A stretch of 64,000 nt of DNA from a virus (IMGVR_UViG_3300031992_000053:1-64000), one strand, 5' to 3'; counted from the first letter of the stretch, positions 35,578-38,018 are shown. Translations and numbers: made by a program. Notes: generated by a model from the letters alone, not told the origin.

Positions 35578-35979
35578 ATGACAGAAAATTTTAAAATCAA
35601 TGAGAATACGAAATGGGCGTTCAATGAGTTGTCAAAACAGCTATTGTTTGCGTCTAGTGAATTCACTAAAGCGAAAGGTGACACAGAAAAGTATAGGCTG
35701 CAAGCGAAAACATTAGCTTTTAATGAATTTGAAAGGGAAGCAATATTAAAAGAAATCTATGAGCATTTAATAGATTTCTTGCATAACGATAAGAATTATC
35801 AGATAAAAAAATTTGTAGATAGGAAATTAATCGAAAATCATCTTCATAGCGACATAAATGAAGCATTAAAAGATGGTATCGAATTTTTTAATACCCCAAC
35901 GGAATCACAAAAATATGTCGTTGTGAAAGATATATATAACGTAAATAAACGTCCCATACTAGAATTAGGGGAATGGTAA
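35578..35979 (+). CDS. hypothetical protein
   Basis: 133-aa ORF preceding the RNA cluster. Confidence 0.55.
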   Translation: MTENFKINENTKWAFNELSKQLLFASSEFTKAKGDTEKYRLQAKTLAFNEFEREAILKEIYEHLIDFLHNDKNYQIKKFVDRKLIENHLHSDINEALKDGIEFFNTPTESQKYVVVKDIYNVNKRPILELGEW

Positions 35980-36213
35980 TTTTGTAGCCGAGGCGATTAG
36001 GTGAGTGGTAGGAAGGAGACAGATATGGTCTCGTGTAGGCTGCAAAAATGAAAAATACCTAGACAAGATGTATTCCTAGTCTTGTTAAGTTAATTGAATG
36101 ATAGGAGTTGAGGTTTAGTATTGCAGAAACCCACAGCTAATGCTAAATCAATGAAAACGTACAGTGATGGACGGTTTGATGCTGGGGATGACTTTTTGGT
36201 GGAACAGCAACCA
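35980..36213 (+). ncRNA. candidate structured non-coding RNA of unknown class
   Basis: GC-elevated, ORF-free, several helices (TGTAGCC/GGCTGCA, GAGAC/GTCTC, ACAAGA/TCTTGT, TTTAGTATT/AATGCTAAA). Ends ...CAACCA just before tRNA-Leu. Confidence 0.45.
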
Positions 36214-36218
36214 TATAT

Positions 36219-36305
36219 GGCTCTGTGGCGAAATTGGTAGTACGCACTAGACTCAAAATCTAGGGAGGGTAAAACCTCGTGTGGGTTCGACTCCCACCAG
36301 AGCTA
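36219..36305 (+). tRNA. trnL: tRNA-Leu(CAA)
   Basis: GGCTCTG/CAGAGCT acceptor, CTAGA-CTCAAAA-TCTAG anticodon arm, long V-arm, GTTCGAC T-loop, A discriminator. Confidence 0.93.
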
Positions 36306-36459
36306 CTTCGTTTTCATAGATGAAATGTTGGGTTTTTAAGTCACGTTTTACTTACTATAGTAGAGAAAACGGACAAGTGGGTATTGTGCGCCTTAGTCGG
36401 AATTGCAAATGCCCACATTTATGGCTCTGTGGCGAAACTAGGTAGTACGCATCAGACTT

Positions 36460-37203
36460 TGAAAGAAATTGGGAACTATCACAAATTTGTCCACTTCTAT
36501 TTAGTTTTTTATGGTATACGCTAATATTTATATAAAAGCGTACTAACAATGAAAAGAGTTAAATATACCAAAGAACTATTAGAAGAAAAGGCTAAAGATT
36601 GTTATTCTTTTGCCGAACTTTGCAGAAGACTTGGGTTATCTACTGAGGGTAGTAATCCTAAAACTGTAAAAAGAAAAATGGATGAATTCAATGTTGATTA
36701 CTCGCATTTCACTGGTAAAGTTTGGAATAAAGACCCAAACAATCCAGTGTATAGAGGAAAGTATCTTCCTAGCCTATGTGAACATAGTTCACTTTCATCT
36801 GCGAATGCAAAAATACTTGTATATAGGTTGGGGCTAAAAGAGAATAAATGCGAGTGCTGCGGTTTATCTGAATGGAGGGGGAAGCCGTTGGTTTGTGAGT
36901 TACATCACGTCAATGGAATACCTAGTGATAATAGAATAGAGAATTTACAAATTCTTTGTCCTAATTGTCATAGTCAGACAGATAACTTTAGAAGTAAAAA
37001 CCGCAAAGGTAATGAGTGCTCAGAGGGAAACCTTTGAAGTAGAAGTCGGCTAATTAGGCGAAGGTATCAGCCTTTAAAAATAAATGATAATAACGCCTAG
37101 CTAAGTTCACTATAATGTGATAAACGTGTAGAGACTATATACCGACAGCCTAAACTTTTTGAGCATGGCTAAGACATAGCCCAAGGGTAATCCCAAACCT
37201 ACG
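36460..37203 (+). mobile_element. group I intron with homing endonuclease
   Basis: Exon ends in U and intron ends in G. P3 GTCGG/CCGAC, P4 TAGGCG/CGCCTA, R element GTAGAGACTA, S element AAGACATAGCCC, P9 GGG-taat-CCC. Confidence 0.88.
36549..37037 (+). CDS. intron-encoded HNH homing endonuclease
   Basis: CECC...ELHHVNG...DNRIENLQILCPNCHS, N-terminal helical DNA-binding region, ATATTTAT at 36524-31. Confidence 0.9.
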   Translation: MKRVKYTKELLEEKAKDCYSFAELCRRLGLSTEGSNPKTVKRKMDEFNVDYSHFTGKVWNKDPNNPVYRGKYLPSLCEHSSLSSANAKILVYRLGLKENKCECCGLSEWRGKPLVCELHHVNGIPSDNRIENLQILCPNCHSQTDNFRSKNRKGNECSEGNL

Positions 37204-37272
37204 AAAATCTGAGGTCCAGGAATGGACGTGTGGGTTCGACTCCCATCAGAGCTACTATCTTTATTTAATCAA

Positions 37273-37343
37273 TGGACTATGGTGTAATGGTAGCACAAGA
37301 GAATTTGGGTCTCTTTGTATCAGTTCGAATCTGGTTAGTCCAA
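37273..37343 (+). tRNA. trnQ: tRNA-Gln(UUG)
   Basis: TGGACTA/TAGTCCA acceptor (U1-A72), AGAGA-ATTTGGG-TCTCT anticodon arm, GTTCGAA T-loop. Confidence 0.85.
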
Positions 37344-37349
37344 CGACAT

Positions 37350-37439
37350 TGCCTGGTGGTCGAGAGGCTTAAGACGGAGGATTTTGGTCCCTCTATGGGT
37401 GTTAGAAACCCATCGCAGGTTCGAATCCTGCCCAGGTAA
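37350..37439 (+). tRNA. atypical long-variable-arm tRNA with UUG (Gln) anticodon
   Basis: TGCCTGG/CCAGGTA acceptor, GTC/GAC D-stem, loop TTTTGGT, V-arm ATGGGT/ACCCAT, GCAGG-TTCGAAT-CCTGC T-arm. Confidence 0.8.
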
Positions 37440-37456
37440 CAATAACTATAAGAAAT

Positions 37457-37660
37457 ATGTCAAAGGGAAAAAAGTATAAAACCCCCAAAAGATTTTGGAA
37501 TAAGAATCCTCATAAAAAATCTTGGAAGGCTCATGTTATGAGCAGTGACCATAAAAAATTCAAATGGTTTTTCAGAAAGAAAAAATGGTTCACCGATGAA
37601 TTTATTAAGAGGATGTCAATGAGATTCCCAATGTCTCATGAAATATGGGGTTGGGATTAA
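37457..37660 (+). CDS. small basic hypothetical protein
   Basis: 67 aa, Lys/Trp-rich. Confidence 0.5.
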   Translation: MSKGKKYKTPKRFWNKNPHKKSWKAHVMSSDHKKFKWFFRKKKWFTDEFIKRMSMRFPMSHEIWGWD

Positions 37661-37713
37661 AATTAAAAATTAAAATAAATCCTATATGTTGACCTTGAAA
37701 ATAGGTCTTTTTG

Positions 37714-37751
37714 AATGCAATTGCTTGTGAAAGTGGTTGCATTTTTATTTT
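37714..37751 (+). terminator. intrinsic terminator
   Basis: AATGCAATTGCTT-gtga-AAGTGGTTGCATTTTTT. Confidence 0.7.
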
Positions 37752-37789
37752 TGACAGTAATGATATATTTATTTCTAAAATTTAATATT

Positions 37790-37963
37790 ATGGAAAATAT
37801 ATACATTAGTGATAAAATAGAAATAGGATATGATTCTCGTGAAAGGGAGTTTACTGTGAGCCTATATGACTTATATGGACATTACATAGACTCTACCAAA
37901 CTTGACAGAGACGATATGAAAGCATTATATGAATCTTTAGATAAGATAAAAGATGTGTTTTAA
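37790..37963 (+). CDS. small hypothetical protein
   Basis: ATG at 37790 (MENIYISD), 18 nt after ATATTTAT. The longer track ORF runs through a terminator. Confidence 0.55.
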   Translation: MENIYISDKIEIGYDSREREFTVSLYDLYGHYIDSTKLDRDDMKALYESLDKIKDVF

Positions 37964-38018
37964 TTTGTTTTTAAAAAATATTTTTTATATATTTGCCAAA
38001 AATTAAAAATTTTATTAT

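Follow-up and report, generated by a model that had tools for sequence, protein, structure and literature searches.

Introduction

In textbooks, as in the software used to find transfer RNA (tRNA) genes, a long variable arm in a tRNA of bacteria or viruses is taken as the mark of the leucine, serine, tyrosine or selenocysteine types. The gene discussed here, at positions 37350-37439 of a stretch of viral DNA of 64,000 nucleotides (nt) (IMGVR_UViG_3300031992_000053:1-64000, called as a whole the window in what follows), specifies a tRNA that associates this long-armed, class II shape with UUG, an anticodon of glutamine. The window covers the initial 64 kb of a virus record of 94,993 bp, with a CheckV completeness of 48%. 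A first-pass annotation of this DNA had assumed that, in bacteria, only the four classical types possess a long arm; this premise is broken by the phage clade to which the record belongs, well beyond one gene. In a full-text literature search, in which subscription journals were poorly covered and supplements excluded, neither a long-arm tRNA-Gln nor the tRNA set of these phages was found described.

Several described systems share part of these features. The closest functional parallel would be an artificial one. As reported in PMC9976931 (citing Rogers and Soll, 1988), a laboratory mutant of the amber tRNA-Ser of Escherichia coli, with anticodon CUA, combining a serine-type long-arm body, U35 and changed first and third acceptor pairs, was taken by the glutamine enzyme in place of the serine one. 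The layout of the phage tRNA, with its serine-type body, U35, G36 and U1-A72, looks like the natural counterpart of this engineered swap from serine to glutamine, from which it differs in being natural, conserved and directed at a sense codon, in having A73 and mostly G2.U71, and in being known from its sequence. The allo-tRNAs of Clostridia, Proteobacteria, Acidobacteria and some phages (Mukai et al., PMC5389517), likewise of metagenome origin, also have a long arm and anticodons other than those of Ser, Leu or Tyr, but in the account given there their branch is 8/4 or 9/3, both the anticodon stem and the D stem are long, position 73 is G or U, and serine is the predicted or shown amino acid. 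Membership of this group was rejected: in the glutamine family the branch is 7/5 and covaries, the anticodon and D stems count 5 and 3 bp respectively, and the acceptor end bears U1-A72 with A73. The nev-tRNAs of nematodes (Hamashima et al., PMC3333845) are again class II molecules with a class I anticodon, conserved in one lineage; they are described there as derived from tRNA-Leu, with leucine determinants and leucine charging only, whereas the acceptor end of the phage tRNA follows the amino acid of its anticodon. This membership was rejected too: the nearest paralogues are long Trp, Thr and Asn tRNAs, not tRNA-Leu, and A15-U48 is absent. Another likeness is with the tRNA-Tyr of phage SP15 (PMC12673091), whose longer variable region allows it to escape a nuclease, Retron-Eco7, that cuts in the variable loop; the tyrosine class is long-armed anyway and the effect there is experimental, whereas for the phage tRNA-Gln escape would be an analogy. 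As for the ordinary, class I, tRNA-Gln(UUG), it has in common with the present gene the anticodon, U1-A72, G10, A73 (as in the short copies of the phage) and a position in a tRNA cluster; its variable loop is of 4-5 nt and its D stem of 4 bp, where the long form has a variable region of 21 nt and a serine-type D arm.

A long-arm tRNA gene with a glutamine anticodon

The region 37350-37439 is a genuine tRNA gene. ARAGORN calls a tRNA-Gln(ttg) at 37350-37440, and the Rfam model RF00005 matches 37350-37439 with 44.3 bits (gathering score 29; E-value 3.4e-7 in a 6-kb search). The gene and its parts are the following:

37350..37439, + strand: tRNA-Gln(UUG), long-arm, class-II-shaped, 90 nt including the discriminator A73 (ARAGORN, Rfam, covariation)
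37350..37356, + strand: 5' strand of the acceptor stem, UGCCUGG, paired with 37432-37438; U1-A72, G2.U71, C3-G70
37359..37375, + strand: D arm of the serine type; 3-bp stem GUC/GAC, G13.A22, loop AGAGGCUU-A with G15 and G18G19
37377..37393, + strand: anticodon arm; stem GAGGA/CCCUC with A31.C39, loop UUUUGGU, anticodon UUG at 37384-37386, G37
37395..37413, + strand: variable arm; 6-bp stem AUGGGU/ACCCAU (37395-37400 with 37408-37413), 7-nt loop GUUAGAA
37415..37431, + strand: T arm, GCAGG-UUCGAAU-CCUGC
37432..37439, + strand: 3' strand of the acceptor stem, CCAGGUA, followed by the discriminator A73 (37439)

The earlier structural description (a loop TT-TTG-GT, U1-A72, A73, a 3-bp D stem, a 6-bp arm running into C48, an A31.C39 mismatch) is recovered here item by item, and its label of a Ser-like scaffold holds as regards the D arm, G15/C48 and the geometry of the variable arm. 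The D loop counts 8 nt, from A14 to A21. The variable arm is flanked by U44 (37394) and C48 (37414), its stem running directly into the latter, within a variable region of 21 nt, and the acceptor branch has the 7/5 geometry. The terminal CCA is not encoded, the bases that follow A73 being CAA. The minimum-free-energy fold (-34 kcal/mol, z -2.08, with 4 of 200 shuffles as stable) recovers the acceptor, arm and T helices, and draws the D and anticodon arms otherwise. The 9-nt anticodon loop that appears in this fold was considered as a sign of frameshift decoding, and rejected: relatives show regular 5-bp stems and 7-nt loops.

Conservation of the arm in related phages

A search of IMG/VR with ClpP gave 8 related loci, some of them on contigs of about 412 kb, and the tRNA cluster was found syntenic in 7 loci, three with the long-arm tRNA-Gln(UUG) and four with a short tRNA-Gln only. 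A relaxed pattern (D-loop motif, U33 followed by UUG, a gap of 22-36 nt, T loop) matched 9 stretches in IMG/VR, 76 stretches in metagenomes and 2 in species-representative bacterial genomes; requiring an exact T loop and D-loop motif, it says nothing on absence beyond its matches. Neither of the bacterial matches was retained. At one of these loci (L052; L numbers designate loci) there is no tRNA, a chance match being most likely, and at the other (L053, in a metagenome-assembled genome of Acidobacteriaceae) lies an odd, allo-like tRNA that stands outside the family. Run over loci L031-L129, ARAGORN identified 87 long tRNA(UUG) genes, corresponding to 48 distinct sequences, 45 of which have both U1-A72 and A73. 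The three others (L051, 289-374; L074, 286-369, minus strand; L107, 286-381, minus strand), on unrelated contigs, encode their CCA and have a serine-like acceptor end with G73. As genuine serine-charged readers of glutamine codons, these three are the better candidates.

The window copy and the 45 distinct sequences, from phage-like contigs, were aligned as a family (n=46). The D loop, U33-UUG and T loop were set by the search pattern, and their invariance, that of UUG in the family included, is by construction; U1-A72 and A73 were absent from the pattern. In this alignment 97.9% of the cells are in standard pairs and 20 of the 25 pairs change on both sides, for a covariation score of 0.575 against 0.194 after shuffling (0 of 500 shuffles as high), a test that overstates independence, the 46 sequences sharing kinship and many coming from similar samples. 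When partners are slid as a control, pairing falls to 29-45%. All five helices covary. The D and T stems are both 100% paired, with covariation at 2/3 and 4/5 of their pairs respectively. In the helix of the variable arm 97% of the cells are paired and each of the 5 aligned pairs changes on both sides, with a loop that has no conserved sequence. This extra arm has 5-7 bp in the family, as a hairpin of 17-23 nt, again with no conserved sequence, and a mismatch of the A31.C39 type is found in 9 of the 46 members. A helix that covaries around a loop of free sequence means that selection maintains the arm as a helix, and that the gene is no pseudogene. The first-pass annotation had asked whether the gene is conserved in related phages: the 46 distinct sequences, with their covarying arm, answer in the affirmative and go beyond what chance would give.

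Contigs from RNA libraries (four runs) were also considered over 35900-37800. One run, X1, labelled as a sheep gut metagenome, provides a contig of 1108 nt covering 36406-37513 with zero differences, which spans a split tRNA, the neighbouring short tRNA-Gln and the long tRNA-Gln with its arm; the other three runs do not cover the gene. Such contigs are no proof of transcription, and DNA may be present in these libraries; the X1 contig says at most nothing against expression. No joint removing the arm was seen in the RNA-library contigs over the gene, and the X1 contig retains the arm unchanged. It is extremely unlikely that we are dealing with a decaying duplicate, or with an arm that would be removed before use. 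The lower Rfam score (44.3 bits against about 57 bits for the neighbours) and the A31.C39 mismatch would fit decay, but compensatory changes affect all five helices across 46 distinct sequences; the arm is a hairpin of 17-23 nt without conserved sequence, and the 1108-nt contig runs through it. We know of no bacterial mechanism for excising such an arm.

Identity elements and the charging enzyme

U1-A72 and A73 are present in all 46 members of the family. The short tRNA-Gln of the same loci (22 distinct sequences) have U1-A72 in 17 cases and A73 in 21, and the neighbour that had been noted earlier as sharing both features does share them:

37273..37343, + strand: ordinary short tRNA-Gln(UUG), 71 nt; U1-A72, G2-C71, G3-C70, A73, loop AUUUGGG (ARAGORN, Rfam)

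This short gene ends 6 nt upstream of the long-arm gene, on the same strand. In the family, the 10-25 pair is G-C in 44/46. Glutamine identity, as summarized in PMC9976931, involves the 1-72 and 3-70 pairs, two acceptor-pair changes having turned an amber tRNA-Ser into a glutamine acceptor (after Rogers and Soll, 1988), and U1-A72 is read by glutaminyl-tRNA synthetase (GlnRS), GluRS2 and amidotransferases. The core of the molecule, with its 6-bp arm, 3-bp D stem, G13.A22, G15/C48 and one free base on each side of the arm, is of the serine type, like the tRNA-Ser of these phages and unlike their tRNA-Leu. We may describe it, from sequence comparison, as a serine-type body with a glutamine-type acceptor end, in which the marks read by the glutamine enzymes appear to be kept while the marks, other than the arm, of seryl-tRNA synthetase (SerRS; acceptor end) and leucyl-tRNA synthetase (LeuRS; A15-U48) are replaced.

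At L067 lies a long-arm tRNA-Gln(CUG) that, in the anticodon arm and the extra arm, departs from the window copy only by C34 for U34 and by one base of the arm loop; such is the usual look of a pair of glutamine isoacceptors. A short tRNA-Gln (L047) shows the A31/UUUUGGU/C39 module of the window copy as well. Most of the short tRNA-Gln of L031-L129 have G37 (loops AUUUGGG, UUUUGGA/C/U, UUCUGGC), two of them with the A31.C39 mismatch, while in E. coli tRNA-Gln has A37. Orthologues apart, the long tRNA-Gln is most similar to the long-arm tRNAs for Trp, Thr and Asn found in these phages, ahead of the Ser, Leu, Tyr and short Gln tRNAs, which suggests that the long-arm genes have a chassis in common or that exchange takes place among them. 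The first-pass annotation had left the choice between a long-arm tRNA-Gln and a serine-charged reader or decoy; the first term is favoured by the 46/46 counts for U1-A72 and A73, the match to the short tRNA-Gln, the CUG partner and the shared anticodon module, and the second is disfavoured.

We consider it probable, if by no means assured, that this is a working glutamine tRNA charged via the glutamine pathway of the host. Neither a Glu/GlnRS catalytic domain nor a class II core of the Ser/Thr/Pro/His/Gly type was found in five related records, four of them complete (G000, the window's own record, and its relatives G001-G004), so that charging has to come from host enzymes. The tRNA would be a functional elongator, reading CAA and probably CAG. 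Its transcript would presumably be cut from a common precursor of the cluster, with CCA added after transcription because it is not encoded, and it would be charged by the host GlnRS, or by glutamyl-tRNA synthetase (GluRS) and an amidotransferase if the host is devoid of GlnRS. Of the features that the glutamine enzymes would read, U35, G36, U1-A72 and G10 are kept, as is, by comparison with the short tRNA-Gln of these phages, the discriminator. GlnRS, a class I enzyme, binds its tRNA on the D-arm side, and the variable region faces the solvent. When the DnaK of the phage is aligned with its E. coli counterpart, 9 of its 20 glutamines fall on a glutamine and 2 on a serine (counted by hand), which indicates that CAA and CAG are written as glutamine; a tRNA(UUG) loaded with serine would mistranslate these codons, not recode them.

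Several observations, beside the kinship of the 46 sequences, weigh against this reading. The discriminator in E. coli tRNA-Gln is G73, and the identity set of that organism, which may not match the host, is only partly present, with A73, G2.U71 and C3-G70 in the window copy. Across the family G2-C71 is replaced by G2.U71 in 38/46, window included, and the 3-70 pair is C-G in 18/46, window included, and G-C in 28/46. The window copy further carries G37, U32 and the A31.C39 mismatch. The complete relative G003 gives no match to the long-arm Gln pattern; with a short tRNA-Gln only in 4 of the 7 informative syntenic loci, this means that the long-arm gene is dispensable. Finally, some serylation may occur, as the serine-type arm is the main determinant of SerRS, G73 having a moderate weight in E. 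coli (PMC9976931).

This last point leads to the possibility of a missense tRNA, loaded with serine by the host SerRS, by which CAA and CAG would be partly read as serine during infection. According to PMC9976931 it is the arm, and not the anticodon, that mainly carries serine identity, and in E. coli the acceptor stem adds to the moderate contribution of G73. C48, an arm with one unpaired base per side and the D arm, with its 3-bp stem, G13.A22, G15 and three bases past G19, are all of the serine type, and Ser-like UUG tRNAs do exist (in L051, L074 and L107, with G73 and an encoded CCA). The acceptor end speaks against it. In three genomes, the tRNA-Ser(UGA/GCU) of these phages have G1-C72, G2-C71 and G73 in 6 of 7 ARAGORN calls, and this G73 and these two pairs are absent from the long-arm family, which has A73 and U1-A72 throughout and mostly G2.U71. 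A serine acceptor would have no reason to keep the acceptor marks of glutamine, nor would the long Trp, Cys, Thr and Asn tRNAs to keep their own discriminators; changes in acceptor pairs moved an amber tRNA-Ser from serine to glutamine identity (PMC9976931); and the phage genes use CAA and CAG where glutamine is conserved, as in DnaK. Serine charging as the role of this tRNA is, we think, unlikely.

Still less likely is charging by an enzyme that deals with class II tRNAs and requires A73, host LeuRS or phage tyrosyl-tRNA synthetase (TyrRS), which would put leucine or tyrosine at glutamine codons. The phage enzyme (61546-62826, + strand; tRNA-synt_1b and SYY C-terminal domain) is encoded in all five records. 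The association of A73 with a long arm is the pattern of leucine and tyrosine, some tRNA-Tyr of the relatives begin with U1-A72, U35 is also a tyrosine determinant (PMC9976931), and the nev-tRNAs of nematodes are leucylated against their anticodon (PMC3333845). Yet the tRNA-Leu of these phages have A15 and U48 where the family has an invariant G15 and C48, and leucine identity, according to PMC9976931, involves A73 together with A15-U48, the latter being essential. The D loop is of the serine and not of the leucine type; as for tyrosine, A73 and U35 are present but positions 34 and 36 are U and G, unlike GUA; and TyrRS is encoded in G003 as well, where the long-arm Gln pattern has no match. 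In the window's own record the tRNA-Tyr(GUA) (G000:C1:73958-74044) has C1-G72, and the relatives also hold a second type with U1-A72. We take C1-G72 to be the tyrosine identity pair of archaea and eukarya.

Beyond the question of the amino acid, the molecule might not translate at all, and act as a decoy or sponge for a host defence protein or nuclease that binds tRNAs, or as a regulator. Its anticodon duplicates that of the adjoining short tRNA-Gln, its presence varies among close relatives, the window copy has the A31.C39 mismatch and G37, and some allo-tRNAs are charged yet unused in translation (PMC5389517). But G37 and A31.C39 are found in short tRNA-Gln too, and in G004 the long form is the only UUG call of ARAGORN (in the regions around the Rfam tRNA matches of that record). 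Mimicry would hardly account for a full canonical 7/5 branch, T loop, U33, 7-nt anticodon loop and invariant aminoacylation marks, nor for the CUG isoacceptor partner. We rate such mimicry as improbable as the serine missense tRNA, and a working tRNA-Gln remains the preferred reading.

Long arms on other tRNAs of the phage clade

This tRNA is one of many rebuilt long-arm tRNAs in a clade of gut phages of about 410 kb, in which about ten other amino acids appear to be concerned. ARAGORN finds, in the complete relatives G001 (412,435 bp) and G004 (409,537 bp), long-arm tRNAs for Pro, Val, Asn, Thr, Met, Cys, Arg(CCU, UCU), Lys(CUU) and Gln; long-arm tRNAs for Glu(UUC) and Gln(CUG) are found at other loci, among the long-arm loci L050, L060, L067, L081, L099 and L122. 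Covariation was computed for the long-arm Gln family only. In G000, G001 and G004 the discriminator does not change between the long and the short form of an isotype, with the exception of 1 of 5 long Met-like genes, and all five discriminators other than A agree between long and short (G in Trp, U in Cys, U in Thr, G in Asn, U in Gly). The first pair mostly agrees as well (A1-U72 in Trp, G1-C72 in Cys, G1-C72 in Thr, C1-G72 in 2/3 of Pro), Asn being different. The long and short forms of tRNA-Cys, and those of tRNA-Arg(CCU), are plain homologues, the difference being the insertion of the arm, and a given isoacceptor can have the arm in one genome and lack it in another, as seen for Trp, Arg(ACG), Arg(CCU) and Cys.

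The window's own record contains four further long-arm tRNAs with class I anticodons, located beyond the window:

G000:C1 80569-80650: Arg(UCU), 82 nt
G000:C1 81558-81647: Arg(ACG), 90 nt, a weak match (25.6 bits)
G000:C1 83706-83789: Thr(UGU), 84 nt
G000:C1 89688-89777: Trp(CCA), 90 nt, with A1-U72 and G73 kept

A 77-nt tRNA with anticodon CUA, named 'Pyl' by ARAGORN, is present in two relatives (G001:C1:276410-276486 and G004:C1:136577-136653) and was not seen in the incomplete record of the window; it is a hint that TAG is read through or recoded in this clade.

Genomic setting

Over the 94,993-bp record, ARAGORN finds 32 tRNA genes and a transfer-messenger RNA (tmRNA). The latter, phage-encoded, lies beyond the window (G000:C1:92964-93290), with the tag peptide GENVDSPAYEYAIAA. 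Another gene beyond the window is tRNA-like (G000:C1:74248-74319), conserved in G001 and G004, for which ARAGORN gives an anticodon of 2 nt only ('tt'; loop window AUUUUAC). The long-arm gene belongs to a local cluster of tRNA genes on the same strand, the first of which is:

36219..36305, + strand: tRNA-Leu(CAA) (ARAGORN, Rfam)

In this cluster a tRNA-Leu(UAA) is split (36423-37254, + strand), with exon 1 at 36423-36459 and exon 2 at 37204-37254, by an insert of 744 nt (36460-37203) between U34 and A35, the last base of which is G; this site is that of the group I intron in the tRNA-Leu of cyanobacteria and plastids. No Rfam match to a group I intron was obtained in the insert at E-values up to 1, and no spliced tRNA-Leu(UAA) joint was seen among the RNA-library contigs over 35900-37800. 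The insert contains an open reading frame for an HNH endonuclease (36549-37037; HNH_3, E-value 5.9e-5, 23.1 bits, slightly below the Pfam cut-off of 24.8).

The proteins of the window include ClpP, DnaK, DnaJ, IF3, two sigma factors, TyrRS, a protein with a BACON_2 domain and a tail fibre. No near relative was found among deposited phages: blastn of 36000-38000 against 50,697 records matched only tRNA-sized or HNH pieces, and a 1266-aa protein of the window had no tblastn match. The best deposited matches of ClpP, at 45-51% identity, are in the Lak megaphages of Prevotella and other huge phages, which, with the BACON_2 domain, gives a weak hint of a host in the Bacteroidota.

What the arm may bring

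RtcB, the RNA repair ligase that reseals cut tRNAs, has its gene at a distance of a few kb from the main tRNA array in each of the five records (beyond the window at G000:C1:65939-67162, and at the corresponding places of G001-G004). If the tRNA works, the most likely benefit of the arm, which we put forward tentatively, as a possibility that falls short of a probability, would be escape from a nuclease directed at tRNAs: the arm would alter the shape of the variable region so that such an enzyme, from the host or from the phage, would no longer cut or bind. For one tRNA, tRNA-Tyr, the shape of the variable region is a proven battleground, as reported in PMC12673091: Retron-Eco7 cuts the host tRNA-Tyr in the variable loop, and the tRNA-Tyr of phage SP15 needs its longer variable loop to defeat it. 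For the tRNA-Gln this benefit is plausible, the case for it being that analogy and the presence of RtcB. The main alternative is a tolerated, drifting add-on, which fits the frequent gain and loss of arms and the absence of the gene from G003.

A broader picture, which we hold to be doubtful, is that the clade moved much of its tRNA set (so far Gln, Glu, Trp, Thr, Cys, Arg, Asn, Pro, Met, Lys and Val) onto one serine-type long-arm chassis, each tRNA keeping its own acceptor and anticodon identity, with the arm as a mark of shape giving immunity to a nuclease, involved in host defence or in the shut-off of the host by the phage, that cuts or measures the short variable loops of ordinary tRNAs. 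Were this true, it would be a general counter-defence, based on shape and independent of the isotype, and these phages would have a natural tRNA set partly insulated from host enzymes.

Implications

The immediate consequence is for annotation, as calls of the isotype based on the anticodon and those based on shape may conflict on such genes. The long-arm tRNAs of these phages are also ready starting points for the engineering of tRNAs with an extra arm. They raise the question of how SerRS and LeuRS would avoid such molecules, and of how far the Gln, Trp, Cys, Arg and other enzymes tolerate the arm, as well as that of tRNA shape as a target in the contest between phages and defences that cut tRNAs. 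A conserved long-arm tRNA-Gln, with sister tRNAs for about ten amino acids, would mean that the arm is separable from amino-acid identity in nature.

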